Of a DNA stretch of 64,000 nucleotides, positions 20,021-54,047 are shown one piece after another. The notes under the pieces are model-generated. The model saw nothing but the letters and a program-made list of their open reading frames with translations, had not been told where the DNA came from and ran no database searches. The stretch's first letter is position 1. The number at the start of each line of letters is the position of its first letter. The DNA is taken from positions 12,338 through 76,337 of the forward strand of contig JANRJF010000254.1 in assembly GCA_033764095.1 (NCBI GenBank), read 5' to 3'. Origin of the DNA: Deltaproteobacteria bacterium. Its GTDB lineage: Bacteria; Desulfobacterota; Binatia; HRBIN30; CADEER01. The position numbers and the translations under genes are program-made.

Positions 20021-20085
20021 GTGGCAGGCGCGCCGTGGGGCAGGGGAGCTGCCCGCCCCGCCGATGGCGCCCGTTCACCGAGGTA

Positions 20086-20125
20086 GAAAAAGAAAAGGCC
20101 CGGAGGATTGCTCCTCCGGGCCTTT
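20086..20125. terminator. Bidirectional intrinsic terminator between lptD (+) and P1 (-)
   Basis: 11-bp perfect stem ggcccggagga/tcctccgggcc (20097-20107 / 20112-20122) with a 4-nt loop. It is flanked by aaaaagaaaa on one side and ttt on the other; the minus-strand reading has the longer T tract. Confidence 0.75.
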
Positions 20126-20146
20126 GAACCGACGGGTGAAGGTCGA

Positions 20147-21382: not shown

Positions 21383-21439
21383 CACTAGTCTCCTTTCCTC
21401 ACCCGTGGAGAACACCATTGCTCGCTATCCCAATCCCGC

Positions 21440-22645: not shown

Positions 22646-22803
22646 CACCCGTCTCCTTTCGTGGCGGAGAAGAATCCTCGCTCTCCCATCCCGCCTCTCA
22701 ACCGTGTCCGACTATCTTGAGTGTCGACATTCGCGCAAACACAACGGCAGGCCGTTCTCCGGCCGGTCGAAAGCTGCCTCCAGTTACTTGAGACCCCTTC
22801 AGT

Positions 22804-22822
22804 TGTCAAGCGGAAAAGGGTG
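22804..22822 (-). promoter_or_regulatory. Conserved upstream motif with -35-like TTGACA, shared with the P3-P6 locus
   Basis: The minus strand reads cacccttttccgcttgaca. The 16-mer cccttttccgcttgac is identical to 45465-45480 upstream of P3. It lies about 155 nt upstream of the P2 start. Confidence 0.45.
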
Positions 22823-22839
22823 ATATCTGTTGCAAACTT

Positions 22840-22867
22840 GCGCGCGCCGGAGCGGGCGCGCGCTTTT
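22840..22867 (+). other. Orphan terminator-like GC hairpin plus T4 in a divergent intergenic region
   Basis: gcgcgcgcc (22840-22848), a 6-nt loop, ggcgcgcgc (22855-22863), then tttt. No plus-strand gene lies upstream. It sits 150 nt before the FG-GAP gene start. Confidence 0.4.
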
Positions 22868-23014
22868 GGTGCACGGGGGTGGCGAAGCGCTCCGATTCCT
22901 TGACCCTCGAAGCCGCCCTCTGGTAAGCGGACCGATCATTTTTTTGCCGGCCACGCCGCGGCTGAGCCGAATAAAGGGCTCGAATCGCAGTCTGAGCCAC
23001 GGGAGGTTTTCTAG

Positions 23015-24397
23015 ATGAGGGTGCGTATTGGGTTGGTGTGTGGTCTGGGATTGGCGGTGGCCGGGCTGAGCGGCTGCGGCATGTTCGCGAAGAAGCCGGC
23101 GGCGCCGGAGAACGCGGCGCAGAAGGGGCTGGCGGCGGCCGCGGCGGCCAGCAAGCCGGCGCCGATGGGCTACACGCTGGCGAACAACGGTTTGCCGCAG
23201 GGCATCATCTGGAAGAGCCAGATGGCGCTCGGCGACGTGAACGCCGACGGCTTTCCCGACATCGGCGTGATCTCCCGACTGGCCGACGGGCCGTGGATCT
23301 TCGTCGGCGACGGCAAGGGCAACTGGACCCCGTTCGCCAACGGCCTGCCGCGCGAGCCGTTCTGCGGCGGCGGCATGGACTTCATGGACGTCAACAAGGA
23401 CGGGATCATGGACGCGGCGATCTCCGACCACTGCAAGGGGGTCTTCGTCTTCCTCGGCGACGGCAAGGGCAACTGGCGCACCGCATCGTCCGGCCTGCCG
23501 ACGATCGGCTCCGAGGACGTCGCGCTGGGCGACTTCAACAATGACGGCTGCCCCGACCTGGCGTCGGTGGCGGCGGCGGAAGAGGGCGTGCGCGCCTTCA
23601 CCGGCAACTGCAAGGGCGTCTGGAAGGAGAGCTCGAAGGGTCTGGCGCTGACCGATTGGGGCAACGCGGTCGAGCTCAAGGACGTCAATGCCGACGGGAA
23701 TCTCGACGTCATCGCCGCCTACGCGGCCGGCCCGCGCGTCTGGCTGGGCGATGGCAAGGGCGGCTGGACCGAGGCGTCGCAGGGGCTGCCGGCACCGCAG
23801 ATCCACGGACTGTACTGGGGCCTCGATGTCGGTGACCTGAACGGCGACGGCAAGCTCGACATCGTCTCCGGCTCGCAGATGCCGCCTTTGCCCGAGGGCT
23901 GCGGCGCGCCCGGCGCGCCGACCTGCGCCGGCGGCGGCGTCGAGGCATTCCTGCAGCAGCCGGACGGCTCGTGGCAGTTCGCCAACGCCGGCTTCCTGCC
24001 GATGAACTCGCTCGGCGTCGCCATCGGCGACCTGAACAACGACGGCAAGCCGGACGTCACCGCGGTCGGCAAGCGCGCGCTCGACGAGATCGGCGGCGTC
24101 TACGGCGTCTATACCTATCTGGGCGACGGCAAGGGCAACTGGCAGCCGGTGATCCCCGAGGGCCTGCCGCAGACCGGCAAGGAACGGAGCTGGGGCGTCG
24201 GTATCGCCGACATCAACCGCGACGGCATGAACGATATCGCGGTCGCCTTCGGCGATGTCGTGTCCCCCACCTGGCGTTCGGGCGCCAAGGGCAAGGACAA
24301 GGAAGCCAAGGAAGCCGAGGCGAAGGCGCCAGCCGCGCCGACGCGCGGCAAGTTCGGCGAGATCGGCGTCTGGTTCGGCAAGCCGACGCCGCGCTGA
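23015..24397 (+). CDS. FG-GAP/VCBS-repeat lipoprotein (predicted 7-blade beta-propeller)
   Basis: Lipobox LSGC at the N-terminus. Seven DxNxDGxxD Ca-loop repeats (DVNADGFPD, DVNKDGIMD, DFNNDGCPD, DVNADGNLD, DLNGDGKLD, DLNNDGKPD, DINRDGMND), each followed by a GDGKGNW-type strand. Lys/Ala/Glu-rich tail. Confidence 0.85.
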   Translation: MRVRIGLVCGLGLAVAGLSGCGMFAKKPAAPENAAQKGLAAAAAASKPAPMGYTLANNGLPQGIIWKSQMALGDVNADGFPDIGVISRLADGPWIFVGDGKGNWTPFANGLPREPFCGGGMDFMDVNKDGIMDAAISDHCKGVFVFLGDGKGNWRTASSGLPTIGSEDVALGDFNNDGCPDLASVAAAEEGVRAFTGNCKGVWKESSKGLALTDWGNAVELKDVNADGNLDVIAAYAAGPRVWLGDGKGGWTEASQGLPAPQIHGLYWGLDVGDLNGDGKLDIVSGSQMPPLPEGCGAPGAPTCAGGGVEAFLQQPDGSWQFANAGFLPMNSLGVAIGDLNNDGKPDVTAVGKRALDEIGGVYGVYTYLGDGKGNWQPVIPEGLPQTGKERSWGVGIADINRDGMNDIAVAFGDVVSPTWRSGAKGKDKEAKEAEAKAPAAPTRGKFGEIGVWFGKPTPR

Positions 24398-37620: not shown

Positions 37621-37709
37621 CTGCGCTCCGGTTATCGCCGGGCCAGCGGGAAGGCAACGCGTTGGCCGCCGCCCGGCCACCTCGCTAGAAGCGGCACGGA
37701 GGCAGCGTC

Positions 37710-39992
37710 GTGTCGGAAGCATCCCCCGCGCCGGGCGGCGCACCCAGACCGCGCGTCGGCGCGGTCGCGCTGCTGGCGCTGGCCCTGGCCTGTGGCGCGG
37801 TCGGCCAGTGGCACTTCGAGAGTGCGCAACCGTGGCGCGTGCAGCAGTGGGAGCGCTTCGTCGCGCAGCGCACGGCGGGGGTGATCTGGTATGGCGCGAT
37901 GGCGATCGCCGCCGCGCTGTTCGTCTGGCGGGCGCGCGACTGGCCGCCGCCGGTGGCCGGCCGCCGTCTGCGCTGGGCGGCGGGGACCGCGCTGCTGCTG
38001 CTCGTCGTCGCCGCCGGCTGGCTGCGTTTCCATCGCCTGCACGAGCTGCCCCCGGGGCTCTGGGTGGACGAGGCGCTGAACGGCGTCCAGGCGGTACAGA
38101 TCGCCGCCAGCGGTCGGCCGCTGGCGGCGTTGCCGCCCGAGGACCTGCGCACCGGGTTGGGGGCCGGCTTCGTCGACCTCGCCGGCCTCGCCTTCGCGCT
38201 GTTCGACTTCGATGACGGTCCCTGGGGCGTTCGCGCCGTCGCGGCGGTGATCGGCATCGCCGCGGTCGCCGCCGCCAGCGCGCTCGCCTGGGTGTGGTTC
38301 GGGCCGCTGGCCGCGCTCGCTGCCGGCGGATGGCTGACGATCTCGCAGTGGCACCTCAACTACTCGCGTTGGGGCGAGATGCCGCTGATGTCATCGCTGG
38401 TCGAGACGCTGATCGCGCTCGGCGTCACCGTCGCCCTGCGGGCGCGCGGCCGGCGCGCCTGGGCGGCATGGCTGTTCGCCGGCGTCATGACCGGTCTCGG
38501 CGTCTACACCTACCAGACCTTCCGACTCTTCATCGTCCTCGCCGGCGGCGCCGCCGGGTTGTGTGCATGGCGCCGGCGCGCCGTGTTGGTGCCGCATCGG
38601 CGGCCGCTGTTGGCGGCCCTGCTGCTGGCGGCGGTGGTGACACTGCCGATGCTGCGCTACGCGCTCAGCGCGCCGGAGCAGTTCGGCGAGCGCGCCATGG
38701 GCACGCTGATCCTCGGGCGCGAGGACTGGCGCGCGCAGCTCGCCGATTCACTGCCGCGCTCATTGCTCGCCTTCCAACTGGTCGGCGACGACAATCCGCG
38801 CCACAACCTGCCTTTCGCACCGTTGCTGACGCCGATCCCGGCGGTGCTGGCGGGGCTCGGCTTGGCGCTCTGCCTGGCGCGCGCGCGGCATCCGCCGTGC
38901 GGCGCGACCGCGCTCTGGTTCGCCATCGCGCTGGTGCCTGCCGTCATCACGCTGGAGGCGCCGCATGCCTCGCGCCTGCTCGACGCGATCGTGCCGCTGG
39001 CCCTGATGATCGGCGTCGCCGTGCAGGCGCTGATCGCCGCGCTGCAGGTCCTGTTGCCGGCCCGCCTGGCGGCGCCCGCCGCGTTCGCCGCGGCCGGCCT
39101 GGCCGCGGCGCTGACCGCGCGCGCCGAATGGCACCAGTATTTTGTCGCGCGCGAAGCCCTGCCGGCGTTCACCGACGCGTTCTTTCCCTACGAGTCGGCG
39201 CCGGGCCGCTATCTCGCGCGCCATGCGCCGGACGCGACCGTGTACCTCGACCCGGTCACCTACTGGCAGCCGGCGACCTTCTTCGTCGCACATCGCTATC
39301 TCGAGACGCGGCCCAACGACGTGCGTGAGCTGTTCCTGGCGCACGACTTCCCGCCGCGCGCGCCGCTGACCCGCGACGCGCTCTATCTGCTGCCGCGGCC
39401 CTACGCGACGTTCGCCGCGGTGCTCGAGTCGCTGTCGCCCGACACCGCCTGCGAGACCGTCCGCGATCGCTTCGCGCGCGTCGACATGATCGCCTGTCGC
39501 GTGCCGCGCGACGCGATGAACGACGCCATCGCGCGCGGGTGGCGTCCGCCCTACGGCCTGCGCGGGCGCTTCTACCGCGGCGGCGAGAACGGCGCGCTGC
39601 TCGCCGAGACGCCGTTGCCCTATGCGCTGGCCGAGTATTCGCTCGATCGACCGCCGGTCGGTCACTTCGATCTCGCCGTGTGGGAGGGCACCATCGACCT
39701 GCCGGTCGACGGCGAGTACTTCTTCCGCCTCAACCCCGACACGACGACGCTGGAGATCGACGGCCAGCGCATCCTGTCGCACCACGGCGACGCCGCGTTC
39801 GGCGGCGCCAACGAGGGCCGCGCCCGGCTGCGCGCCGGGCGCCGGCCGATCCGCATCACGCTGGCGCCGGGAACCGGCGGTCCGAACTTTCTCTGGTTCT
39901 ACTGGCAGCCGCCCGGCGGCGAGGGCGATTGGGTGCCTGCCACCGTGTTGCGGCCGGCGGCGGACCGGTCGGCAGCCTCGCCTCCGTCTTGA
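37710..39992 (+). CDS. GT-C (GT39/PMT_2, ArnT-like) glycosyltransferase fused to a C-terminal PA14 domain
   Basis: More than 10 TM segments with a first-loop acidic motif (LWVDEALNG). The C-terminal 140 or so aa match the PA14 pattern (GLRGRFYRGG...AVWEGTIDLPVDGEYFFRL...LEIDGQRIL). Confidence 0.7.
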   Translation: MSEASPAPGGAPRPRVGAVALLALALACGAVGQWHFESAQPWRVQQWERFVAQRTAGVIWYGAMAIAAALFVWRARDWPPPVAGRRLRWAAGTALLLLVVAAGWLRFHRLHELPPGLWVDEALNGVQAVQIAASGRPLAALPPEDLRTGLGAGFVDLAGLAFALFDFDDGPWGVRAVAAVIGIAAVAAASALAWVWFGPLAALAAGGWLTISQWHLNYSRWGEMPLMSSLVETLIALGVTVALRARGRRAWAAWLFAGVMTGLGVYTYQTFRLFIVLAGGAAGLCAWRRRAVLVPHRRPLLAALLLAAVVTLPMLRYALSAPEQFGERAMGTLILGREDWRAQLADSLPRSLLAFQLVGDDNPRHNLPFAPLLTPIPAVLAGLGLALCLARARHPPCGATALWFAIALVPAVITLEAPHASRLLDAIVPLALMIGVAVQALIAALQVLLPARLAAPAAFAAAGLAAALTARAEWHQYFVAREALPAFTDAFFPYESAPGRYLARHAPDATVYLDPVTYWQPATFFVAHRYLETRPNDVRELFLAHDFPPRAPLTRDALYLLPRPYATFAAVLESLSPDTACETVRDRFARVDMIACRVPRDAMNDAIARGWRPPYGLRGRFYRGGENGALLAETPLPYALAEYSLDRPPVGHFDLAVWEGTIDLPVDGEYFFRLNPDTTTLEIDGQRILSHHGDAAFGGANEGRARLRAGRRPIRITLAPGTGGPNFLWFYWQPPGGEGDWVPATVLRPAADRSAASPPS

Positions 39993-42205: not shown

Positions 42206-42394
42206 TCAGCGGCGCAGGTGGCGGTACTGGTCGGACTTTTCGCGACGCAGCGCGGAGAGACGGTTGTCGGCGTCACGTTGGATGCGCGACTTGCGATGCA
42301 GGAGGGCGTAGAGCACCAAGGCGCCGACGGCGACCCCCACCCCGACCATCGGGTGGGTGGACACTAAATCGACGAACGGCTTGAGTTGGTCCAT
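42206..42394 (-). CDS. Small single-pass membrane protein (hypothetical)
   Basis: 62 aa with one TM helix (MVGVGVAVGALVLYALL) and a basic tail. GC3-rich frame. Confidence 0.35.
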   Translation of the reverse strand: MDQLKPFVDLVSTHPMVGVGVAVGALVLYALLHRKSRIQRDADNRLSALRREKSDQYRHLRR

Positions 42395-42595: not shown

Positions 42596-45169
42596 ATGGG
42601 GCGTGGTGACGCGACGGGCGCTGACCCGAGCAGGGGCACGGGCGACGCGGTGAGCGCCAGTCGATCTCGGCCTGTGTTGCTGCGCCGGCTGGCGCTGGCG
42701 GTCCTGGTGGCCGGTTTGTCGAGCTTCGCCTCCGGCCTCGCGTCCGCTCAGGAGGTGCGCGGCGACGCCAACTGTGACGGAGTGGTGAGCCAGGCCGACC
42801 TGCCGGCGCTCAGCTCCGCCCTGTTCCTCGGTAGCGTCTGTGCGACCGCCGACGTCAACCAGGACGGGCGACTGTCGGCCGCCGACCTGGTGGCGCTGAT
42901 CCAAGTGCTGGCCGCGTCGCCCACGCCCAGCCCGAGCGCGACCGCCAGTGCCACGCCGAGCGGGGTGGCAACAGCGACCGCGACGCAGAGTCCCACGTCG
43001 CCTTTGCCGAGTGCCACCGCCAGCGCGACCGCGAGTGCCACCGGGGTCGCCACCGCGACCGCGACATCGCTGGCGACCGCGACGGCGACCGCGACGCGCA
43101 CTGCCGAGGCGACGGCGACCTCGATGGCAGCAACGGCGACGGCGACCTCGGTGGCCGCAACGGCGACGGCGACCTCGGTGGCAACCACAACCGCCAGCGA
43201 CACGCCGACGCCGCTAGCCACCGACACCGGCACGCTCGTCGCCAGCCCGACGCCGACCGCAACCGCCAGCGTGCCGACCGAAACGCCGCTCGAGGCGACC
43301 GCCACCCCGGAGCGCAGTCCCACCGCCACATCCGATCCCAGTCCGACCGAGACCGGGACGCTGCACCCGACCGCTACCGCGACCTCGACGGCGAGTGCAA
43401 CCGGATCGGCGACGCCGACCGAAGTGGTGGCGCCGACGAGCACGGCGACCGGCTCGCCGAGCGCGACCGCGCCGCCGCCGTCGATGACACACACCGCCTC
43501 ACCGACCAACTCGGCGCTTCCGAGCGCCAGTCCGACCGAGACCGTCAGTCCGACGCGAACGCAGAGTGCGACCCGCACCGCGAGCGCGACGCGGACGCCG
43601 ACCGAAACGCGCACGCCCACCGTCACCCGCACCGGCACACTGCCGGCGACCGACACTCCCACCGCGACCGGCTCCCCGACGCGTACGGAGACGCGCACGG
43701 CGACGGTGACGCGTAGCGCGACGCCGGCGTCCACGCTGACGCCGACCAGGACCGCGACCGAAACGCGCACGCCGACCGAGCCGGCATCCCCGACCCGCAC
43801 GCACACGGTTCCGGCGAACGCTACCGAGACGCGCACCTCGACGCCGACCCGCACCGAGACCGTCACCCGAACCGAAACCGAGACGCGCACGCCGGTGCCG
43901 CCGACGGCGACGCGCACGCCGAGCTTCACCGGCACCGTCACCCGTACGGCCACCTCGGCCCCGTCGGCGAGCCCGACGCGCACTGAGACGGCCTTGCCGG
44001 CCAGCGTCACGGCGACCCCGACACTGACCCCATCGCGAACGGCGACTGCCAGCTTCACTGGTACGCAGACCCGCACCGAGACGCCGACGCGCACCCCGAC
44101 CGCGACGCGCACCGATACGCCGCTGCCGCCGCCTACCGCCACCGGCACGCCGCTGCCGTCAGAAACCGCGACCCGCACCGGGACGGCGACGCGCACCGAT
44201 TCGCCCAGCCGCACGCCGACTCGCACCGCGACGTTGACGCCCACCGGCACAGAGACGCGAACGCTGACGCCAACGCGCACCATCACGCCGACGCCGAGCG
44301 CGACCAACACGTTGACGCCGATCTTCTCCTTGACGCCGACGCTGACCCGCACGCTGACGCCGACCGGCACGCCGACGCGCACGCAGACCAACTCCCCGAC
44401 GCCGACCTTCAGCTTCACGTTCGTGCCGACGCGCACGTCGACGATCACACGGACGCCGACCATCACCCGCACCGCGACGCGAACCTCGACGATCACGCCC
44501 ACGCCGACCGTCACCCGGACGCCGACACCGACTTCGGCCCTGGCCGGTCCGCGGGTCAGCTTCGCCGGCGCGATCTCACAGGATGGTTGTCAGTCGTGCT
44601 GCCAGTTTATTTGTCAGCTGACGCCAACCCCGACACCCATCATCGAGAATGGCCGCGAGGTCTTCGTCCGCGACGTCGGCCAGTTCCTCTTCGTCGTCGA
44701 AGGCCAGCGCGGACCCTCCAACCAGAACCCCGGTCTCAACGTGAACCCCGACGGAACCGATCGCGGCGACCTGCAGATCCTGGTCAGCCGCTCGACCGGC
44801 GCCATCGACGATCCGGCCGGATTCGGCAGCGCCGCCGTCTGCGACATGGGCCCGCCGCCGCTGCCATTCGGCGGCGTGCCGGGCGTCAACCCGCCGGTGT
44901 TCCTCCCCGGCGACGCGATCACCCATGCCATTCAAGACATGGAGTGTCGTTTCACCGCGATTCCACTCAGCGCGATCAGCGGTGCCTGCACGCGCAAGTC
45001 GAACGGCGACTTTGGATTCATCAGCAACCAGACGCGTACACAATACTGCTACCAGGTGCCGATGACCGGCGCCTTCCAGGTCGGCGACACGCTGGTGTCG
45101 GTGCAGTTGCGCGACGTCGGCGGCAACATCGGGCCGACCAAGGAATTCATCATCCGCGTCCTGCCCTGA
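42596..45169 (+). CDS. TR-A: secreted giant protein with dockerin-like Ca-loops, about 540 aa of Thr-rich period-2 low complexity, and a conserved unnamed C-terminal domain
   Basis: One uninterrupted frame. It contains a signal peptide (LALAVLVAGLSSFASGLASAQE), GDANCDGVVSQADL...ADVNQDGRLSAADLVALI, long T-x-T-x tracts, and a C-terminal domain shared with TR-B. An alternative GTG start lies at 42651. Confidence 0.8.
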   Translation: MGRGDATGADPSRGTGDAVSASRSRPVLLRRLALAVLVAGLSSFASGLASAQEVRGDANCDGVVSQADLPALSSALFLGSVCATADVNQDGRLSAADLVALIQVLAASPTPSPSATASATPSGVATATATQSPTSPLPSATASATASATGVATATATSLATATATATRTAEATATSMAATATATSVAATATATSVATTTASDTPTPLATDTGTLVASPTPTATASVPTETPLEATATPERSPTATSDPSPTETGTLHPTATATSTASATGSATPTEVVAPTSTATGSPSATAPPPSMTHTASPTNSALPSASPTETVSPTRTQSATRTASATRTPTETRTPTVTRTGTLPATDTPTATGSPTRTETRTATVTRSATPASTLTPTRTATETRTPTEPASPTRTHTVPANATETRTSTPTRTETVTRTETETRTPVPPTATRTPSFTGTVTRTATSAPSASPTRTETALPASVTATPTLTPSRTATASFTGTQTRTETPTRTPTATRTDTPLPPPTATGTPLPSETATRTGTATRTDSPSRTPTRTATLTPTGTETRTLTPTRTITPTPSATNTLTPIFSLTPTLTRTLTPTGTPTRTQTNSPTPTFSFTFVPTRTSTITRTPTITRTATRTSTITPTPTVTRTPTPTSALAGPRVSFAGAISQDGCQSCCQFICQLTPTPTPIIENGREVFVRDVGQFLFVVEGQRGPSNQNPGLNVNPDGTDRGDLQILVSRSTGAIDDPAGFGSAAVCDMGPPPLPFGGVPGVNPPVFLPGDAITHAIQDMECRFTAIPLSAISGACTRKSNGDFGFISNQTRTQYCYQVPMTGAFQVGDTLVSVQLRDVGGNIGPTKEFIIRVLP

Positions 45170-45464
45170 TGGGCATCGCCGGCGCCGTCCGCAGCGACTC
45201 ACGCTGCGGTCGCCGGCGTGACCGAAACGCTGAATCTTGCCAGTTCGGCACCTGGCTGCCGGATCGGCCCCCTCCGCTCAGTCGGCAAAATCATATTTGC
45301 CGCCCCGCCATTTTGTGGCATACACCGTGCCTGCCAAAACGGCGGCGCGTGCAGCGGATGATGCTTTTTGGGAACAGACAACCGGTCGGGAGCGCGGACG
45401 GCGCCCTCTACCGCCAGCGAAGCGGCCGATGGATGCCAGAATCCACCGCTGCCGGACATCTCAC

Positions 45465-45504
45465 CCCTTTTCCGCTTGACTGCGTGGCAGCAAATTGCGA
45501 TAAG
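45465..45504 (+). promoter_or_regulatory. Conserved upstream motif plus sigma70-like promoter candidate for the P3-P6 operon
   Basis: cccttttccgcttgac (45465-45480) is identical to the minus strand of 22805-22820. TTGACT (45476-45481), a 17-nt spacer, then GATAAG (45499-45504), about 75 nt upstream of the P3 ATG. Confidence 0.4.
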
Positions 45505-45578
45505 CCGTCACGCGTTGAAGGGGCGAGGTTCGGACCCCGGTAACGCATATGGGTGCAGTTACCGAAAGGAGGCGTGCA

Positions 45579-47063
45579 ATGCGAGTGCAGAAGCGAAGCC
45601 CGTGGCTGACTGGCCTGGGAGTGGTGCTGACGGCCATGGCGCTGTGGGGAGCGCAGGCTCGAGCGGAAGTCTCCTCCGACAAGCCTGGGTCGGTGGTGAT
45701 GTGGCCAAAGGTGATTGCGGATGGAACCCGCGACACCCTCATCACGCTGACCAACACGCTCAACTTTACTGCGTACGCGCATTGCGAGTACGTCCAGGCG
45801 CTCGGCCTGTGTTCGATCACGGGAGATTTCTGTGATCCACAGGCCACTGTCGATGGTTCGCCGGGCATCTGTCCGGCAGTCGCCGGCAACGTCTGTGTCG
45901 ATCAGTGGCAGACGGCGAACTTCGACGTCGTCCTGACCCGCCAGCAGCCGACGATCTGGCGCGTGTCGACCGGCCGTATTTACGATCCGTTCCTGCTGAC
46001 CGACGGCGTCTGCCAGGACATCCCGGGCGTTCCGCTGCGGCAGTCCTGCCCCGGTCTCTTCCTGATCGGCCAGGTCCCGCCGGCGCCGGATCAGCCGTTC
46101 CGCGGCGAGCTGCGCTGCTTCCAGGTCGCTTCCGACGGCACGCCGCTGCCTGCCAACGGCCTGAAGGGCGAGGCGGTGATCGAGACGCTGCCGACTACCG
46201 ATCTGCCGGTGAACACGCAGATCAGCAAGTACAACTCGATCAACGTCGAAGGTCTCGATGCTCCGTCGATCGACGGCATCCTGCGCCTGAACGACATCGA
46301 GTACAGCGCCTGTCCGGAGGCGGTCGAGGTTACGCACTACGCGCAGGGCGCCAACGTCCTGGACACCCCGGCCGGCTTCACGGGGTGCAGCGGAACCGGT
46401 TGCCCGGTCAACACGGAGATCACCCTGATCCCGTGCCGCGCCGACTTCACCAACGAGGTCGGTGCCCGCTTCGCGACGGACATTCGCTACACCAACGAGT
46501 TCGAGCAGACCCTGTCGGTCGAGCCGACGTTCGATTGCTGGGCGAACTTCGACCTGCGCGACCTGCCTTTCGCACCCGCCTCGCTGAGCGGCACCACGTT
46601 CCAGCGCACCCGCCTGATTCCGACTGGCTCGGGTAACTGCATCTCCGGCGATACCTCGCTCAATGGTGAGGAGAACGGCCCCTGCGCCGACGACGCCGAC
46701 TGCGGCACCGGCGGCGTCTGCGGTCCGGTGACCGGCATCCTCGCGGTGGTTGAAGAGTTCTACAGCTCTGACGCCTCCCTGGCCGTCCCGCCGACCGCCC
46801 CGACTGGAACCGCGGCATCGAACGGCTACTCGGTTGATTTCAACCGCGACAACAACCTGGGGCGCCCCGGCCACTGCCGCGGCGATCTGACGGAGGAGTG
46901 CACCACGGACGCCGATTGCGGGACCGGCCTGTGCCGAATCAACACGACGGTCTCCTGCATGAGCGACGCGACGTGCGCTGCGCTCGATCCGACTGACTTC
47001 TGCGATCGCTGCATGAACGACGAGATCGCGACCGAGTCCGGTCCGATCGTCATCGTCCAGTGA
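45579..47063 (+). CDS. Secreted Cys-rich protein, uncharacterised paralog family, P3 (divergent, with C-terminal Cys-module extension)
   Basis: GAAAGGAGG RBS and a signal peptide ending AQARA/EV. Family motifs MWPKVI, DTLITLTNT, AHCEYV, WQTANFDVVLTRQQP, PFRGELRCFQ, NGLKGEAVI, SKYNSI, LIPCRADF, NEFEQTLS. The C-terminus has extra C..DADCGTG.C modules. Confidence 0.8.
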   Translation: MRVQKRSPWLTGLGVVLTAMALWGAQARAEVSSDKPGSVVMWPKVIADGTRDTLITLTNTLNFTAYAHCEYVQALGLCSITGDFCDPQATVDGSPGICPAVAGNVCVDQWQTANFDVVLTRQQPTIWRVSTGRIYDPFLLTDGVCQDIPGVPLRQSCPGLFLIGQVPPAPDQPFRGELRCFQVASDGTPLPANGLKGEAVIETLPTTDLPVNTQISKYNSINVEGLDAPSIDGILRLNDIEYSACPEAVEVTHYAQGANVLDTPAGFTGCSGTGCPVNTEITLIPCRADFTNEVGARFATDIRYTNEFEQTLSVEPTFDCWANFDLRDLPFAPASLSGTTFQRTRLIPTGSGNCISGDTSLNGEENGPCADDADCGTGGVCGPVTGILAVVEEFYSSDASLAVPPTAPTGTAASNGYSVDFNRDNNLGRPGHCRGDLTEECTTDADCGTGLCRINTTVSCMSDATCAALDPTDFCDRCMNDEIATESGPIVIVQ

Positions 47064-47098
47064 TGCGCCGGCGTCGAGACGAGAGAAGGAGAAGGGCG

Positions 47099-48247
47099 AT
47101 GCTGAGCATGAAGAAGGTTCTCCTGGGAGTGGCGGCGCTCACCGGCCTGGTCCTGTCGGCGCCGGCGCAGGCGGAGACGTTCTCCGATACGGGCGCGGCG
47201 GTGCTGGTCTGGCCGACCATCATCGTGTCCGAGGATTACGACACGATCGTCACGATGACCAACCAGGCCGCGGTGCCAAGCGCGGCTCACTGCTTCTACG
47301 TCAATGCCAACAACCGCTGCTCGAACACCGGCGAAGTCTGTGAGGACTCGTCGGAATGTGAGGACGGCGGATTCTTCGGCGCCTGCCTGCCGGGCTGGAT
47401 CGAGATCAACTTCGACGTCCTGCTCACCCGCGATCAGCCGCTCGGCTGGAGCGCCGCCGACGGCCTGAGTGGTTCGGGACTGCCGTGCCCGGGCGGCATC
47501 GGCAGCATCTGCAGCGGCAACGGTGGCACGCGCGTTCCGCCGGTCGGCGAAGTTCCCTTCGTCGGCGAGCTCAAGTGCATCCAGTCGGATCCGATCACCC
47601 GCCTGCCGTTCCCGTGCAACGATGCAAATCCGCTGAACCGCTGCCGCAACGACCTCGAGGGTGGCGCGACGATCACGGGTTTCAATCCCAACAACGGCGA
47701 GATCGATCCGGAGCGCTACAACGCGGTCGGCCTCCGCTCCGCTGGCCAGAACAACGGTGACAGCCTGCTGGTCATCGGTGGACCGCCGGCACAGGCCGAG
47801 TACCAGCCCTGCTCCGAGGTCCTGGTGTTCAATCACATGTTCGACGGGGCGGTCGATCCGGTGAATCCGGACAATGAATTCGCCTCCACGCTCAGCCTGG
47901 TTCCCTGCACGGAGAACTTCCTGACCCAGTCGGTTCCCCGCGTGACGGCACAGTTCCTGGTCTACAATGAATTCGAGCAGCGCTTCTCGACCAGCCGCCT
48001 GGTCAACTGCCTGCTGACCAGCGACATCTCCAACATCGACACGACGCAGTCCGACCGCTCGATCTTCAGTGCGGCAGTCGCCGGCACAGTGGCCGGCCAG
48101 ACGCGCATCACCGGAGTTGGTGGCGGCCTGATCGGCAATGCGGTTCTGTTTACGTTCAACGATTCACTGCTGGCCGCCTCGGGTGCTGGCTACAACCTGA
48201 ATCAGTTTGCGGACCGCGTCGATCCGGACTTCATCAGCATTCCGTGA
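47099..48247 (+). CDS. Secreted Cys-containing protein, uncharacterised paralog family, P4 (type A)
   Basis: GAGAAGGAGAAGG RBS and a signal peptide ending PAQA/ET. Motifs DTIVTMTN, AHCFYVN, GWIEINFDVLLTRDQP, PFVGELKCIQ, LVPCTENF, LVYNEFEQRFSTS. Confidence 0.8.
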   Translation: MLSMKKVLLGVAALTGLVLSAPAQAETFSDTGAAVLVWPTIIVSEDYDTIVTMTNQAAVPSAAHCFYVNANNRCSNTGEVCEDSSECEDGGFFGACLPGWIEINFDVLLTRDQPLGWSAADGLSGSGLPCPGGIGSICSGNGGTRVPPVGEVPFVGELKCIQSDPITRLPFPCNDANPLNRCRNDLEGGATITGFNPNNGEIDPERYNAVGLRSAGQNNGDSLLVIGGPPAQAEYQPCSEVLVFNHMFDGAVDPVNPDNEFASTLSLVPCTENFLTQSVPRVTAQFLVYNEFEQRFSTSRLVNCLLTSDISNIDTTQSDRSIFSAAVAGTVAGQTRITGVGGGLIGNAVLFTFNDSLLAASGAGYNLNQFADRVDPDFISIP

Positions 48248-48291
48248 CGGGTCGCATCTGTAGCGCGTGGCTTCCTGAAGGAGGAGAACCC

Positions 48292-49386
48292 ATGAGTACG
48301 GTTAAGGGACTGCGAGCCGGCGTGATGGCGAGCATCCTCGCGGGGGTGGCGCTGGCGGCCGGAATCGCCCAGGCGCAGAACTTCTCGACCGAGCAGCCCG
48401 GTTCGATTCTGATCTTTCCGAAGGTGGTGAACACCTCGGACACGATCATCCAGATCACCAATACCGACAACAGCGTCGCATACGCGCACTGCTTCTACGT
48501 CAACGGCGCGTCGGTGAACGGACAGCCGCTGTGGCAGGTGACGGACTTCGAGCTCACCCTGACGCGGCAGCAGCCTACGCACTGGGCGGCGAGCACCGGC
48601 CGTGCCGTCAATCCGCAGGACGGCGTCCCGGGTATCGACCCGGGTCTGGTTCCGCCGGTCGCGCCGGGATTCACCGGCTACCTCACCTGTGTCGAAACCC
48701 TGGCTGACGGCACTCCGACCAGCGGCAACCATCTCATCGGTGTTGCCACGGTGGGTGAGATCAACGGCCTCGGCGGTGGTGCGAACATCGTGAGCAAGTA
48801 CAACGCGATCGCCATCCCGGGTTGCAACGGTGATGATGGTCCGTGCGGCGACACCGGAGAGTCGAACGACGGCAACAACATCCTCGAGCTAAACAACGTC
48901 GAGTATGCCCGTTGCCCCGGCGGCGTGTACCTGAACTTCCAGTCGGAGGGCGGTCCGGATCCGGCCCTGGCGGGAGCCGGGAATGTCGCCTCGACGGTCA
49001 GCACGGATCTCACCTTGGTGCCCTGCGGGATCGACTTCGAGAACCTCATCCCCGAGTCGACGACGCTGAGCGCCGAGATCCGGGACGAGTTCGAGAACCG
49101 CACCTCGATCACGGCGATCGACATCGATTGCTTCTTCGACGAGCCCCTGAGCTCACCGCTCTTCTCGGGCCAGTTCGTGCTGCCAACGGCTTTCGGATCG
49201 GCGATTCTTCGTCCGCAGGCAGGGACGGGGAACGTCCCGGCGGTTGGCGTGGCCAACGTGCTTCGTACGGCGGATGACGGTACGCAGGACACGGCGGCGA
49301 CGAACCTGCACTTCTGCACGGACCAGGATCCGCCGGCGCTGTGTGTGCCGGTCGACTCCGAGATCCGGCTGCCGACCTTCCAGTGA
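48292..49386 (+). CDS. Secreted Cys-containing protein, uncharacterised paralog family, P5 (type B)
   Basis: GAAGGAGGAG RBS and a signal peptide ending IAQA/QN. Close paralog of P2 (ILIFPKVV, DTIIQITNT, AHCFYVNGA, PLWQVTDFELTLTRQQPTHW, LTLVPCGIDF). Confidence 0.8.
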   Translation: MSTVKGLRAGVMASILAGVALAAGIAQAQNFSTEQPGSILIFPKVVNTSDTIIQITNTDNSVAYAHCFYVNGASVNGQPLWQVTDFELTLTRQQPTHWAASTGRAVNPQDGVPGIDPGLVPPVAPGFTGYLTCVETLADGTPTSGNHLIGVATVGEINGLGGGANIVSKYNAIAIPGCNGDDGPCGDTGESNDGNNILELNNVEYARCPGGVYLNFQSEGGPDPALAGAGNVASTVSTDLTLVPCGIDFENLIPESTTLSAEIRDEFENRTSITAIDIDCFFDEPLSSPLFSGQFVLPTAFGSAILRPQAGTGNVPAVGVANVLRTADDGTQDTAATNLHFCTDQDPPALCVPVDSEIRLPTFQ

Positions 49387-49440
49387 GTTGGGACGGTGGG
49401 TGACGAGATGAAGCGCGCAGGCAGGGAAAGGAGTCACGAG

Positions 49441-50712
49441 ATGCGTACGGTCAATGCCAAGGGGAGCGCCACGCGGTTGTCCGCGGCGGTTCTGGCGGCA
49501 TCGCTGATCCTCGTCGGCTGGTCGGCTGGCGCGTCGGCGCAGGTGTCCCGGTCGGATCGGGCTGCCGGCTACGTCGTGCTGCCGAAAGTCATCGTTCACA
49601 CGACGGGCGGTGATCCGGCAGTGCCGGTGGGCGGCGTCGCCACCGACACGCTGATTCAGATGACGAACACGAACCAGGCGTCGGCGATCACGGTCGACTG
49701 CTGGTGGGTGAACGCCAACCGCCACTGCGGATCGGACGCTGGTCCTATCTGCCAGACCAATGCCGACTGCGCTCCTGGGCTCCAGTGCGTGCAGGGGTGG
49801 GCGGTGCTCGACTTCCAGGTGACGCTGTCGCCAGGGCAGCCGATCGGCTTCCTGGCTTCGACGGAGCTCAATCCGCTCCCGTGCGATCCGACCTTCCCGG
49901 GACCGGGATGCCTCGGCAACGCGGGCGGCGCGGTCCGTCCGGTGCCGGAGGATCCGTTCCAGGGTGAGCTGAAGTGCGTCCAGGTGGACGAGAATGACAT
50001 TCCGGTGGCGGAGAACGACCTCAAGATCGAGGCGACCGTCATCTCGACGACCGCCGGGGCGCCGGGGACTGCAACGACAGCAGCGTCCTACAACGGCGTG
50101 GGTTTCGAGGCCCTGGAAGAGGGCACGGGCGGGGTCGACGACCCGCTGTGCCTGGGTGGGCTGCCGATGGGAACGCCCCAGGGCGTGGAGTGCGCCGCCG
50201 AGTATGCACCGTGCCCGAACGTGCTCCACGTGGAGCACTTCTTCGACGGCGCCGTGACGGAGTTGGGCAGCACGGTGACCACCGACCTGACGCTGGTGCC
50301 GTGCAGTGAGAACCTGGGAGAGCCGGCTGAGCAACTCGACCTCCGCGTCACGGCGCAGATGCTGGTGTACAACGAGTTCGAGCAGCGGTTCTCGACCAAC
50401 AGTGTCGTGAATTGCTACCAGGCGACGCAGCTGTCGGACATCGACACGCAGCCGGGACCGGCAGGTAACCCGTACTCGATCTTCTCGGTTGGTGTTGAAG
50501 GAACGATCACGGGTCAGACGCGCATTCGCGGTGTCAGCGGTCCGCAGGGTCCGCTGGGTTACGGTCTGATCGGCGTGGCCTGCGAGGATCACAGCGTGGG
50601 CGGTGGCTCGGTGGTTGCCACCACGGCGTTCAACCTGCAGTCGGTTGGCTTCCGCGAGGGCGGCGACGCAGTGTACCGGACGCAGTTCCCGCAGCAGCCT
50701 GTGGTTCCGTGA
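49441..50712 (+). CDS. Secreted Cys-containing protein, uncharacterised paralog family, P6 (type A)
   Basis: GGGAAAGGAG RBS and a signal peptide ending ASAQ/V. Close paralog of P1 (DTLIQMTNT, PFQGELKCVQ, CPNVLHVEHFFDGA, LTLVPCSENL, LVYNEFEQRFSTN, SIFSVGVEGTITGQTRIRGV). Confidence 0.8.
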   Translation: MRTVNAKGSATRLSAAVLAASLILVGWSAGASAQVSRSDRAAGYVVLPKVIVHTTGGDPAVPVGGVATDTLIQMTNTNQASAITVDCWWVNANRHCGSDAGPICQTNADCAPGLQCVQGWAVLDFQVTLSPGQPIGFLASTELNPLPCDPTFPGPGCLGNAGGAVRPVPEDPFQGELKCVQVDENDIPVAENDLKIEATVISTTAGAPGTATTAASYNGVGFEALEEGTGGVDDPLCLGGLPMGTPQGVECAAEYAPCPNVLHVEHFFDGAVTELGSTVTTDLTLVPCSENLGEPAEQLDLRVTAQMLVYNEFEQRFSTNSVVNCYQATQLSDIDTQPGPAGNPYSIFSVGVEGTITGQTRIRGVSGPQGPLGYGLIGVACEDHSVGGGSVVATTAFNLQSVGFREGGDAVYRTQFPQQPVVP

Positions 50713-50740
50713 TCTGTAGTTGAAGCGAGACCGACCGAAG

Positions 50741-50775
50741 AGGCCGGAGTGGGAACCCACTCCGGCCTTTTTTTT
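50741..50775 (+). terminator. Intrinsic terminator of the P3-P6 operon
   Basis: aggccggagtggg / cccactccggcct, a 13-bp stem with a 2-nt loop, followed by a run of about 8 T. Begins 29 nt after the P6 stop. Confidence 0.85.
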
Positions 50776-50829
50776 CCCAAGAGGCTCGGCTAAAGCCGAA
50801 TTGGCGCACCGCAGGGTGCGAGGCACGCG

Positions 50830-51216
50830 ATGGCAGCGAAGCGAATCCTGGTCGTCGAGGACAACTTGGACAATCGTCGTATCCTCGTCTACCGCCTCAA
50901 GCGGATCGGCGAGTTCGAGATCGTCGAAGCGAGCAACGGCGAGGAGGCGCTCACCATCGTGCAGACCCCACCGCCGCCCGATCTGATCTTCATGGACCTG
51001 AAAATGCCGGTCATGGATGGATGGGAGGCGACCAAGAAGATCCGTCAGCTCGAGTTCGGGAAGGGCATTCCGATCATCGCGTTGACCGCGCAGGCGATGG
51101 CGGGGGACGAGCAGAAGGCACTGGCTGCCGGCTGCGACGACTACCTGGCGAAACCGATCGTCGATCTCAGTGTCGTGCGTACGAAGATGGAGCGTCTGCT
51201 GAGCCGAGTGCACTGA
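50830..51216 (+). CDS. Single-domain response regulator (CheY-like receiver)
   Basis: ILVVEDN, phospho-acceptor context LIFMDLKMPVMDG, ALTA, and DDYLAKP. No output domain. Confidence 0.88.
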   Translation: MAAKRILVVEDNLDNRRILVYRLKRIGEFEIVEASNGEEALTIVQTPPPPDLIFMDLKMPVMDGWEATKKIRQLEFGKGIPIIALTAQAMAGDEQKALAAGCDDYLAKPIVDLSVVRTKMERLLSRVH

Positions 51217-51312
51217 GGCGAGCCGCAGGGCGCGACTGGGCGGGGGCAGGAGCGGCGAGCGGGAGTTGGCTCGCGTGACAAGTTGTCCGGCGCTGACGGG
51301 CCGGATGACGCG

Positions 51313-53544
51313 ATGAGGAGATCTCGGCAGGCAGCGTCGGGTCGTTGGGCGTGGGTTGCGATCCCGCTGCTGGCGATCTGTGTGGGTGGCGGCCCGCTGC
51401 AAGCGGCCAGCGCGCTGTGCGAGGCGGGCGATGCGCGGACGCGGGTCGGGCTGGTGGTCGATGCCCTGTTCAGCGGCGGAGCCTGCGACGCGAACGGCGA
51501 CGGCGGGACCTCGGCGGCCGACCTGACCGCGGCGTGGAGTGAGCCGGCAGCGACGCCGACGGCCACGCCGAGCGCCACAGGGCCGGCGACACTCACCGCG
51601 ACGGCGACTGCCAGCGGGACGAGCCTGCCGGCGACGCCCGAGGCCACTGCCACGCCGACCGCTCCGTCGCCAAGTCCGACCGCGGTCGCGCAGGTGACCG
51701 CCAGCCGGACGGTGACCGCGACGCCCGTGCCGAGCGCGACGGCGAGCGCAACGCCTACCCTGGACGCCAGCCCCGGAGCGTCCGCTTCGGCGACGCCGAC
51801 GGCAACCGAGACCCCGACCGCCGCGGCAACCGAAACGGCGACCCTGGTGGATGCGGAGACTGAGACGCCGACCGCGCTGCCGACCGGAACGGCCAGCAGC
51901 ACGCTGACTCCAACCGTCGGCGCGCCGAGCGCGAGCCCCACGGCCGTGCCTACTGCAACCGTTGAAGCGACGCCGGTCGACTCCGCGACGGCAACCCCAA
52001 CGCGGACGGCGACCCATACCGCAACGGCCATCCCGACGCTGACAGCGACCCCGACTCGATCGCCAAGCTCAACCGCCAGCGCTTCTCCGACGCGAACCGC
52101 GACACGAACAGTGAGCGCGTCCCCCAGTGCGAGTGCGACGCGGACCGGCAGCGCGACGCGCACGCGCACGCCGACAACTGGTCCCACCGCCACGGCGTCT
52201 CAGAGCCCGACGCGGACCGCCACGGCGGTTGCCACGCTCACACCGACCCGCACGATCACCGGCACGCGGCCGGCAACGCCCACCCGCACCGCCACTGCCG
52301 CCGCGTCCCCGACCCGCAGCAGCACTCCCACCCGCACTCACAGCCCGACTCTCGCGGCGAGCGCCACGCGCACCTCGACGGTGACCCGGACCAGCAGCCC
52401 GACACGGACCGTCACCCAGGCCGCCAGCCACACACCGACGCGCAGCCCTTCTCCTACACGCACTGCGACCGCACCGATCGGTCTGCCGGGCACCGCAACG
52501 CAGACCCCGACCCGTAGCGCGTCGGTGACGCGGACGGCGACCTGGACGCGCACGCCAAGCGCCGCGCACTCCGCCTCGCCGACGACCACGGCCACGCGTA
52601 CGGGGACCGCCACCCGCACGCTGACCTACACCGCTGGCCCGTCGCCGACCCGTACCGGCACGGCGACCGGTACGGCAACCCTCGCCCCGAGCTCGACGCG
52701 TACGCCCACGCCAACGCCGACCGCTTCGGTGACCGCTACACACGTCCCCACCGGAACGCCGACGCACCCGCCGACCGCGTCGCCCACCGTCACGCCGACG
52801 CCAACCGCGTCAGCCAGCCGCACGCGCACGGGCACGCGAACGCCGACGCCGACGCGCACCGGCAGCGCGACCCAGACCGCCACCGCCACCGGCACGGCGA
52901 CCATCACGCGGACGCCAACGCGCACCGCCACCGGCACCCCGGCGCCCACCAACACTCCGCGGACAATCGGCGGCGAGATCACCGCCTTTGGCGTGGCGCG
53001 CGCCGACGGCCAACCGGTGATGACCATCGGTCCGCAGGACGACGGCTACCTGACGTTCGTCCGCCCGCCGAGCGGCTTCATCATCTACATCGAAGCAAAG
53101 CGCGGTCTCAGCGGACTGGCCGTGGGCTCGGAGACGTTTGCCTCGGACCCCAAGGATCCGAACGTGCTGCCCGATCTGCAGGTGCTCGTGTCACGGCCGC
53201 TCGGCAACGGCAGCACTGCGGTGTGCGACATCTCGCCGCCTGTCGGCGGCGTTCCGGCCGTCGTCCCACCGACGTTCGGCGGCTCGCAGGCGGTCAGCAA
53301 CGCGATCAACGATTTCTCGTGCCGCTTCGACGCGCGTGGCAGCTCGATGCAGGCCTGCACGCGCGACGGCTTTTCCGCCTACACGTTCACCGAGCCGAGC
53401 TCGACCATCCAGTTCTGCACCAGCCCCGGTATCGGCACCGAGCTCGCCTTCCCGCTCGGGGACACCATCGTCACCGCGCGTGTGCGCGACGTTGCCGGCC
53501 AGCCCGGCCACGCAAAGAGCATCGCGATCCGCGTGCTCGAGTGA
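51313..53544 (+). CDS. TR-B: secreted giant protein with one dockerin-like Ca-loop, about 470 aa of Thr-rich period-2 low complexity, and the same conserved C-terminal domain as TR-A
   Basis: Signal peptide ([23 protein letters not shown]), [14 protein letters not shown], and long T-x-T-x tracts. The C-terminal domain aligns with TR-A ([45 protein letters not shown]). Confidence 0.8.
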
Positions 53545-53572
53545 CGCGCGCCGGCGCGGGCGCGCCGGGGGC

Positions 53573-53818
53573 TCAGTGGATCGGCTCCTCGCCGTCGGCC
53601 GGCATGCCGTTGCCCGCCGCGTCCGCCTGTACCGTGACGCCGTGCCGGCGCGCGAACTCCAGGATGGTCGCCTTGGCGAGCTTGCTCGGCCGGAAGCGGC
53701 CGTTCTCCCATCGGTTCACGGTGCCGACCGTGATGCCGAGAGAGTGCGCGAACTCTTCCTGCGTCATGCCGAGCTGCCGGCGCAGGTGGCGGATGAAATC
53801 GCTCATGTTGTCGTCCAT
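53573..53818 (-). CDS. XRE-family helix-turn-helix transcriptional regulator
   Basis: 81 aa: LGMTQEEFAHSLGITVGTVNRWENG. GGAGG RBS before the ATG at 53818. Convergent with TR-B. Confidence 0.8.
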   Translation of the reverse strand: MDDNMSDFIRHLRRQLGMTQEEFAHSLGITVGTVNRWENGRFRPSKLAKATILEFARRHGVTVQADAAGNGMPADGEEPIH

Positions 53819-54047
53819 GCCTCCGATGCCTCCAACCGTCGAGCCACGCTGTGGCGATCGGCCCAGCAAGACAGCAAGCGATATGCCACAAGGTTTCTGC
53901 TGTCGTCCGGCACTTTGCACGGCATTTCGCCGTCATTCCGGTGCCATCCGGCATGAGCGCATAGCGTCCGCCGGCAGCCGAGCGACGTTTCACCCGGCCG
54001 CGACGCCGTGAATTGACATAGCCTCGGCAGTTGGCGAATGGTCGCGC

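Follow-up and report, generated by a model that had tools for sequence, protein, structure and literature searches.

Binatia (Binatota) are widespread uncultured bacteria of soils and sediments, and the DNA analysed here, a stretch of 64,000 nucleotides from contig JANRJF010000254.1 of one such genome (hereafter the window), carries between positions 42596 and 53818 a locus in which four paralogous genes, P3 to P6, and a gene for a receiver-only response regulator are bracketed by two genes encoding giant secreted-type proteins, TR-A and TR-B, with an XRE-family regulator gene converging on the latter. There is strong evidence, at the level of sequence, that the P and TR proteins act together in one system, and the decisive part of it is the occurrence of natural fusions in which P, a dockerin and the C-terminal domain of the TR proteins (here named TRC) form a single chain. 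Genes in the window were picked by codon-position GC and homology, since the window is about 70% G+C and most of its long open reading frames (ORFs) are shadow ORFs. The gene set described in the initial annotation of this DNA was recovered by ORF analysis, Pfam and BLAST, all eight genes being present on the strands given there:

42596 to 45169, + strand: TR-A, 857 amino acids (aa), isoelectric point (pI) 8.8, 310 bits with the TRC hidden Markov model (HMM)
TR-A aa ~24 to 52, + strand: Sec signal-peptide-like N-terminus (ending in LLRRLALAVLVAGLSSFASGLASA, followed by QE), read by eye
42761 to 42910 (TR-A aa 56 to 105), + strand: dockerin, Pfam Dockerin_1, 26.8 bits (cut-off 22.9)
TR-A aa ~106 to 648, + strand: spacer of ~540 aa, rich in Thr, Pro, Ala, Ser and Arg
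44540 to 45166 (TR-A aa 649 to 857), + strand: TRC domain, the last 209 aa
45579 to 47063, + strand: P3, A-type, 494 aa, 25 Cys, pI 4.2, with a Cys-rich C-terminal extension
47060 to 48247, + strand: P4, B-type; ORF start at GTG 47060, signal-peptide-like segment from ATG 47099; 359 bits with the P-family HMM
48244 to 49386, + strand: P5, A-type; ORF start at GTG 48244, likely start at ATG 48289
49396 to 50712, + strand: P6, B-type; likely start at ATG 49441
50830 to 51216, + strand: receiver-only response regulator, 128 aa, Pfam Response_reg 88.8 bits over residues 6 to 110
51283 to 53544, + strand: ORF of TR-B, likely start at 51313; 743 aa, pI 10.9
51487 to 51522, + strand: dockerin-type loop of TR-B, one canonical DxNxDGx5D loop
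52969 to 53541, + strand: TRC domain of TR-B, C-terminal, after the Thr-rich spacer
53573 to 53818, − strand: XRE-family helix-turn-helix regulator, convergent with TR-B; Pfam HTH_3 45.8 bits, HTH_31 37.2 bits

TR-B repeats the layout of TR-A, both proteins consisting of a signal-peptide-like N-terminus, a dockerin-type loop, a Thr-rich spacer and TRC, and the earlier view that two giant secreted-type proteins of common architecture bracket P3 to P6 was confirmed by Pfam, by the loops, by composition and by the identity of TRC. Residues 56 to 105 of TR-A hold two DxNxDGx5D calcium loops and resemble a type I dockerin, the duplicated loop being present in TR-A only. The spacers of both proteins extend over ~500-550 residues rich in Thr, Pro, Ala and Ser (the low-complexity span of TR-A is ~30% Thr, 16% Ala, 12% Pro, 11% Ser and 7% Arg), and tandem-repeat analysis found in them short degenerate repeats only and no clean arrays. 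TRC comprises ~180-210 aa with four invariant Cys, and is 35-38% identical between TR-A and TR-B over ~180 aa (E 1e-14 to 1e-15). Profile searches with TRC against Pfam, NCBIfam and PDB sequences returned nothing above noise; its AlphaFold2 model (predicted local distance difference test, pLDDT, 86.5; predicted template modelling score, pTM, 0.85) is a beta-sandwich, for which the best Foldseek match in the PDB was a domain of PorU (TMq 0.39). A charge contrast runs through positions 42596 to 53544, the pI of the P proteins being 4.1-4.5 as compared to 8.8 for TR-A and 10.9 for TR-B; the TR proteins are basic because of the ~6-7% Arg in their Thr-rich spacers, carried in repeats of the TRTxT type.

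P3 to P6 are paralogous (24-38% identity), and the window holds six copies of the family in all, the other two forming a further pair:

21440 to 22711, − strand: P1, A-type, first gene of the third A-B pair
20147 to 21424, − strand: P2, B-type, second gene of that pair; 38-41% identity to P4 and P6; 443 bits with the P-family HMM

BLAST scores split these six proteins into an A-type (P1, P3 and P5) and a B-type (P2, P4 and P6), the order being always A then B. In the syntenic set (n = 9: the window, L001 in GCA_019637795, L002/L003 in GCA_050176585 and GCA_050184825, L004, L006, L007, L009, L010 and L011) the four P genes of the operon constitute four orthologue groups in a fixed order, orthologues being 46-77% and paralogues 24-44% identical; positional orthologues of P3 in eight genomes share 50-76% identity, and the nearest paralogue of P5 is P1 (44% identity). 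Eight Cys are invariant throughout the family, which is large: homologues of P6 amount to at least 833 at 90% clustering, none with a Pfam domain on record, and the family as a whole to at least 1352 clusters at 50% identity (E ≤ 1e-3). The named homologues of P and TRC belong overwhelmingly to 'Candidatus Binatia', 'Deltaproteobacteria bacterium' or unclassified metagenome-assembled genomes (MAGs), and two partial entries carry the labels Thermoanaerobaculia and Mycobacteriales. No match that rose above noise came from sequence and profile searches with P in Pfam, NCBIfam and the sequences of the PDB. The AlphaFold2 model of P6 (pLDDT 86, pTM 0.84) shows two beta-sandwich domains, and its Foldseek matches in PDB and BFVD were generic beta-sandwich or jelly-roll structures (TM ≤ 0.2), the single domain-level match being the uncharacterised TM1070 (1nc7). 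A transfer of function from the structural matches of TRC or P6 was rejected, as Foldseek gave no convincing match.

When typed with subtype HMMs, seven of seven further pairs or fusions (L017 twice, L018, L020, L021, L022 and the halves of protein P0253) also read A then B, and all accessory modules fused to P were found on the B-type. In L020, L021 and L022 there is a 4-nt overlap between the A gene and the B gene. One protein, P0185, has the order B then A, consistent with a segment taken from an A-B-A-B array. The ordering, the gene overlap and the B-borne modules are the pattern expected of an obligate A/B hetero-oligomer, which is most likely what the two types form, and the two-gene minimal module of L020, L021 and L022 offers a compact target for heterologous expression. 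In P0185 (864 aa, from a metagenome) the B-type P is followed by a TP linker and then by a Cys, a hydrophobic segment and RRRR, an arrangement resembling a C-terminal sorting signal, and the called protein reads through, with no stop codon in between, into the A-type P gene that comes next. A MYXO-CTERM or sorting-signal label for this tail was considered and dropped, as no NCBIfam sorting-signal model matched.

That the C-terminal domain of the TR proteins is linked to the P family, a point which the initial annotation had left to a survey of other genomes, was supported by gene order and by fusions. The order TR-A, four P genes, receiver, TR-B is kept in at least nine Binatia genomes. In protein P0273 (661 aa) a B-type P (residues 8 to 381) is followed by a dockerin-like module, a PT linker of ~25 aa and TRC (residues 486 to 660, HMM 165 bits), while P0253 (951 aa) and P0328 (959 aa) carry an A-type P, a B-type P, a dockerin and TRC in one chain. 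The fusion of B-type P, dockerin and TRC was met in at least 21 clusters (90% identity clustering) from Binatia and 'Deltaproteobacteria' MAGs, with 42-100% identity to P0273, and these fusions are not assembly chimeras, because they were found in unrelated genomic neighbourhoods. The fused TRC of P0273 is closer to that of TR-B (43% identity, 119 bits) than to that of TR-A (37%, 96 bits), and the succession P6-(receiver)-TR-B on the DNA parallels that of the domains in the fused chains. Elsewhere P is joined to nothing but a dockerin (P0279), to FG-GAP repeats and Dockerin_1 (P0289, 36 bits), or to Cys-rich repeats and dockerin loops (P0269, P0275 and P0286).

The P1-P2 pair has a neighbourhood of its own, spanning 17399 to 24397, in which it stands between lptD (17399 to 20020) and the gene of an FG-GAP repeat protein (23015 to 24397), followed by two ABC exporter genes; the FG-GAP neighbour may be compared with P0289, where a B-type P is itself joined to FG-GAP repeats and a dockerin.

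As for location, signal-peptide-like N-termini were read by eye on all six P and both TR proteins, and a diderm envelope is indicated by LptD, BamA and LolC/D-like genes in the window. The extracytoplasmic placement of P and TR proposed earlier is plausible in view of these N-termini, of the eight Cys in P, of the calcium-loop dockerins and of the mucin-like spacers. A Pfam scan of clearly coding window ORFs revealed no cohesin, usher, sortase or exosortase and no secretion ATPase, and no C-terminal sorting signal was recognisable on the P or TR proteins of the window. Two genes upstream of TR-A lies a possible modifying enzyme:

37689 to 39992, + strand: candidate accessory membrane glycosyltransferase of the C superfamily (GT-C, PMT_2-like)

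This gene is syntenic in six of the eight other genomes. At L017 a glycosyltransferase family 2 (GT2) gene and a PMT_2 gene come directly after a four-gene P array, and a GT2 gene flanks loci L002 and L021; neither kind was found beside L018, L020 and L022. The nearby GT-C and GT2 genes make O-glycosylation of the TR spacers plausible.

Taken as a whole, these data appear best explained by secreted A/B P complexes of the Binatia lineage that are tethered by TR proteins, a reading to which we give about an even chance. Its core unit would be an acidic, disulfide-rich pair of one A-type and one B-type P, each with two beta-sandwich domains and encoded by tightly packed adjacent genes; the hetero-oligomer would form outside the cytoplasm, and the window would provide for three pairs (P1-P2, P3-P4 and P5-P6). 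TR-A and TR-B would represent a detached and greatly elongated version of the dockerin-linker-TRC module that in other Binatia forms the C-terminal part of the B-type P, with the calcium-loop dockerin at one end, the TRC beta-sandwich at the other and, in between, a basic Thr/Pro-rich spacer of ~500-550 residues that is probably O-glycosylated, and they may act as long flexible tethers or cross-linkers joining P complexes to each other or to an envelope partner. Expression would start from a promoter block common to the P1-P2 and P3-P6 units, with sigma-54-type elements upstream of P3 and of the XRE gene, and the receiver and the XRE regulator would be lineage-specific regulatory add-ons. We infer the A/B heterodimerisation, the role as tether, the glycosylation, the location beyond the inner membrane and the function of the promoters from this body of comparisons. 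A bolder proposal, which we entertain tentatively and hold to be somewhat unlikely, is that the A/B P pairs are the units of an undescribed self-assembling cell-surface lattice, sheath or fibre, in which the dockerin-linker-TRC module, whether fused or detached as TR-A and TR-B, would join each A/B unit to its neighbour or to the outer membrane, and the giant basic glycosylated spacers would set the spacing of the layer.

The locus can be described as a modular dockerin-bearing secreted-type protein system based on two uncharacterised folds, and the pairing of A with B together with the fusion to dockerin and TRC defines a testable system where databases say 'hypothetical protein'. Should the products form a surface layer or matrix, they would have a bearing on how Binatia interact with soil particles and other cells; should they build a self-assembling lattice, sheath or fibre, one would be dealing with a new class of envelope architecture in bacteria, made from two folds without characterised relatives. 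A survey of the literature on Binatota/Binatia for dockerins, surface proteins and signal peptides yielded nothing relevant.

Several observations weigh against the reading of tethered A/B complexes. TR-B has a single loop and no Pfam dockerin match, and no cohesin or other partner for the dockerins was found in the 64-kb window, which encodes no outer-membrane export route. The candidate glycosyltransferase scores 26.0 bits with Pfam PMT_2, just under the cut-off of 26.1. The nine syntenic genomes are collinear beyond the locus, from a short-chain dehydrogenase gene (~34.6 kb) through MaoC, GT-C, Metallophos and DprA on one side to XRE, g54048 and g54711 on the other, and therefore synteny alone is weak evidence. 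A genome scan for TRC loci with a narrow, TR-A-type TRC alignment returned loci devoid of P genes (L005, L008 and L012 to L016), and the P1-P2 pair has no TRC nearby. Finally, the promoter assignments derive solely from conservation of sequence, and the protein-protein contacts of the model are ones that we infer.

Among the alternatives, the one that survives best is a periplasmic or otherwise envelope-internal complex, in which P pairs and TR proteins would be lodged between the two membranes, or at the periplasmic side of the outer one, with a structural or binding role. It would agree with the N-termini, which are all of the Sec signal-peptide-like kind, with a window that holds no type II or type I secretion system, usher or sorting signal, with the proximity of P1-P2 to lptD and the BamA and LolCD genes of a diderm envelope, and with the linker of the fused forms, which measures merely ~25 aa. 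Nonetheless, we consider it unlikely, as spacers of 500-550 residues would exceed by far the width of a periplasm (on a rough estimate), dockerin modules and linkers of the mucin type are characteristic of extracellular or surface-exposed proteins, and so are the FG-GAP repeats with dockerin or the C-terminal hydrophobic/Arg tail that some relatives of P possess.

A second alternative, suggested by the initial annotation, is docking of the cellulosome type, with P proteins as functional cohesin analogues that bind the TR dockerins and are displayed on TR stalks. TR-A does carry the signature of a genuine type I dockerin, with two DxNxDG loops as in cellulosomal cohesin-dockerin pairs and in non-cellulosomal dockerin modules; the P proteins are beta-sandwich proteins, and the genes are adjacent and conserved together. 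Further likenesses to cellulosome-type assemblies are the modular secreted-type proteins, the Thr/Pro-rich linkers and the clustered subunit genes. However, no cohesin was detected by Pfam among the proteins of the 64-kb window that were scanned, by the P-family profile against PDB sequences, or among the 50 Foldseek matches listed, and P bears no sequence signature of a cohesin. The dockerins are attached to domains of the TRC, P or FG-GAP kind. Many relatives have the dockerin on the P polypeptide itself, which is unexpected for a simple receptor-ligand pair and implies that the partner of the dockerin may be something else. The dockerins here also come without attached enzymes, neither the locus nor the fusion proteins having shown a catalytic domain (glycoside hydrolase or other), unlike in cellulosomes; the host is diderm, the dockerin is joined to two uncharacterised families (P and TRC), and TR-B has one loop. 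Docking of P on the TR dockerins appears therefore improbable, and of the earlier interpretation the part that stands is that P and TR belong to one system, as indicated by the fusions, and most likely to an extracytoplasmic one.

Other known systems provide analogies at best. The serine-rich repeat (SRR) glycoprotein adhesins of Gram-positive cocci (Hsa, SrpA and Fap1) likewise project a beta-sandwich on a long, probably glycosylated spacer rich in hydroxy-amino acids, and Foldseek related their Siglec and Unique binding regions to TRC with a probability of 0.5-0.87 and a TM of 0.25-0.3, too weak for homology; the spacer found here is rich in Thr, Pro and Arg rather than in Ser, and there is neither an accessory Sec system nor an LPXTG anchor. 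The Cys-rich-repeat, FG-GAP and dockerin proteins of myxobacteria and deltaproteobacteria (DUF4215, TIGR02232, TIGR04201) include modules to which relatives of P are fused, and share with this system the weak Myxo_Cys_RPT match of P3 and the FG-GAP protein beside P1-P2, whereas P and TRC are not members of these families. The DUF4215, TIGR02232 and TIGR04201 repeats are functionally uncharacterised themselves. Chaperone-usher and sortase pili are also encoded by clusters of paralogous beta-sandwich subunits, and weak Foldseek matches to the CfaB pilin were obtained (TM ~0.09), but the window has no chaperone, usher or sortase gene and the subunits are here two-domain and disulfide-rich. P and TRC show no resemblance to known S-layer proteins, either in sequence or in structure, and nothing testable is common with pili or S-layers.

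The possibility that there is no joint function, P being independent secreted binding or adhesion proteins and TR independent mucin-like adhesins, would draw on the collinearity, which reaches the flanking housekeeping genes, and on the fact that each family is also found without the other; with at least 21 independent clusters of P/dockerin/TRC fusions in unrelated neighbourhoods, down to 42% identity to P0273, it is very unlikely.

Three of the loci without P genes, each situated downstream of a gene for aconitase, represent another type of TRC locus:

L012, 9797 to 16142
L014, 9245 to 20474
L016, 4404 to 14942

In each of these, the parts of one TRC protein are rearranged (signal-peptide-like N-terminus, TRC, PT linker, CarboxypepD_reg-like domain, dockerin), and another TRC protein keeps the standard order of dockerin, linker and TRC. 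In L014 and L016 the two TRC proteins flank a secreted right-handed beta-helix (NosD-like) protein of 910-947 aa, and TRC/dockerin proteins may therefore partner with secreted cargo besides P.

The reality of the giant Thr-rich genes deserves consideration, as it determines how they are recorded elsewhere. The TR orthologues of the syntenic genomes consist of a signal-peptide-like N-terminus and a dockerin, 400-700 residues rich in Thr, Pro, Ala and Ser, and TRC. Their dockerin and TRC ends lie in one uninterrupted + frame in the window, L001, L003, L004, L006, L007 and L009 to L011, that is in every syntenic genome in which both ends could be read, although the linker varies in length and sequence; for TR-A, an unbroken orthologous ORF was recovered from all eight other syntenic genomes. 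TR-B of L002 is broken by an assembly gap, and the TRC ORFs of L005 and L015, outside the operon, are incomplete. In the protein database, by contrast with this architecture, almost all TRC homologues are 170-250 aa long. The public calls of the TR orthologues are wrong, being cut to a C-terminal fragment of ~170-220 aa, and in L002/L003 the gene callers placed antisense ORFs over the Thr-rich DNA and retained the C-terminal domain alone:

L002, 8044 to 9327, − strand: antisense call
L002, 9421 to 9969, − strand: antisense call
L002, 10001 to 10606, + strand: TRC gene, 201 aa
L001, 7766 to 10001: spacer region without a gene call
L001, 10001 to 10552, + strand: TRC gene, 183 aa

This systematic error, in which giant Thr-rich genes are shortened or in some records replaced by antisense ORFs, renders the dockerin-spacer-TRC architecture invisible to databases and domain-based surveys. 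Shadow ORFs account for the long antisense 'VGVRV' frames: that of the window (42748 to 44514) has a high G+C content at the third codon position (GC3), yet the wobble position is common with the sense frame, so the antisense frame looks coding too and GC3 cannot discriminate. The converse notion, that the giant genes are artefacts and the real ones are the antisense ORFs with short C-terminal-domain genes, exactly as some public calls (L002, L001) have it and as the GC3 of the antisense ORF might suggest, is practically negligible given this uninformative GC3, the single open frame kept across varied linkers, and the short-linker relatives P0162 and P0273, which show the same domain order free of strand ambiguity.

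Regulation of the locus was approached through the 380-nt intergenic region between TR-A and P3, aligned across the nine genomes, and through a search for sigma-54 patterns (TGGCAC-N5-TTGCW with GG-N10-GC spacing). The candidate elements are:

45316 to 45330, + strand: sigma-54-type -24/-12 element TGGCATACACCGTGC, a pattern match in the TR-A/P3 intergenic region
45468 to 45504, + strand: conserved promoter block TTTTCCGCTTGACT, with TTGACT at 45476 to 45481, a 17-nt spacer and GATAAG at 45499 to 45504
53874 to 53888, − strand: near-consensus putative sigma-54 promoter GTGGCATATCGCTTGCT, ~56 nt upstream of the start codon of the XRE gene

The promoter block, made up of TTTTCCGCTTGAC(A/T), the 17-nt spacer and GATAAG, is identical in all nine syntenic loci and occurs once per locus. 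The same 15-mer stands with one mismatch upstream of P1 (box TTTTCCGCTTGACAA, 22803 to 22817, − strand), and a TTTTCCGCTTGACA box is also found ~85 nt upstream of a P gene in contig L042, of 61% GC; a metagenome-wide scan with the 14-mer box returned mostly chance matches, one of the 120 listed (that of L042) being upstream of a P gene. These conserved elements, putatively promoters, link P1-P2 with P3-P6. In the intergenic alignment a TTTGTGGCATA...GTGC block with sigma-54 spacing is conserved, the full pattern TGGCATA-N4-GTGC being present in six of nine loci, and all eight loci that bear the XRE gene retain the core TGGCAT-N5-TTGC upstream of it (seven identical, L007 differing at one spacer base). 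A generic scan for promoters and terminators performed at chance level and missed the conserved elements, and no rpoN or enhancer-binding-protein gene was found in the window; the distant P locus L018 has a Sigma54_activat gene in its vicinity.

Close to the P3 gene, a 34-nt ribosome-binding-site (RBS) and start block, CGAAAGGAGGCGTGCAATGCGAGTGCAGAAGCGA (window 45545 to 45590), comprising the Shine-Dalgarno sequence and the first eight P3 codons, is 100% identical in the nine genomes, wobble positions included. Because of this invariant block the start of P3, previously placed at 45549, was corrected to ATG 45579, and the wobble-level identity points to a constraint that may act on the RNA or the DNA. 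When the conserved P3 leader was folded with RNAalifold, high sequence conservation was seen with essentially no covariation (1 of 22 pairs), and no RNA structure is claimed. Since TR-A, upstream of the conserved promoter region, appears as a transcription unit of its own, an operon from P3 through TR-B is more likely than one from TR-A through TR-B. Twenty nucleotides past the TR-A stop, a perfect 8-bp GC-rich hairpin without a T-run (CCGCAGCG-ACTCA-CGCTGCGG, 45189 to 45209) was read by eye; it is absent from the list of the terminator scan and may be a terminator splitting TR-A from the P3 unit.

The receiver is 90-98% identical across the syntenic loci, as compared to ~47-93% for its neighbours and 46-77% for the P proteins, an unusually strong constraint, judging from these identities, for a protein which by Pfam has no output domain and no adjacent histidine kinase. 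The XRE gene is present in eight of the nine syntenic genomes and missing from L002/L003. The distant P loci L017, L018 and L020 to L022 lack both genes, which are therefore to be seen as lineage-specific additions rather than as core parts. Rfam and tRNA scans of the window gave no matches. Between dprA and TR-A lies a further small ORF (42206 to 42394, − strand, 62 aa), which matches no family and is conserved with 38-62% identity in seven syntenic loci.

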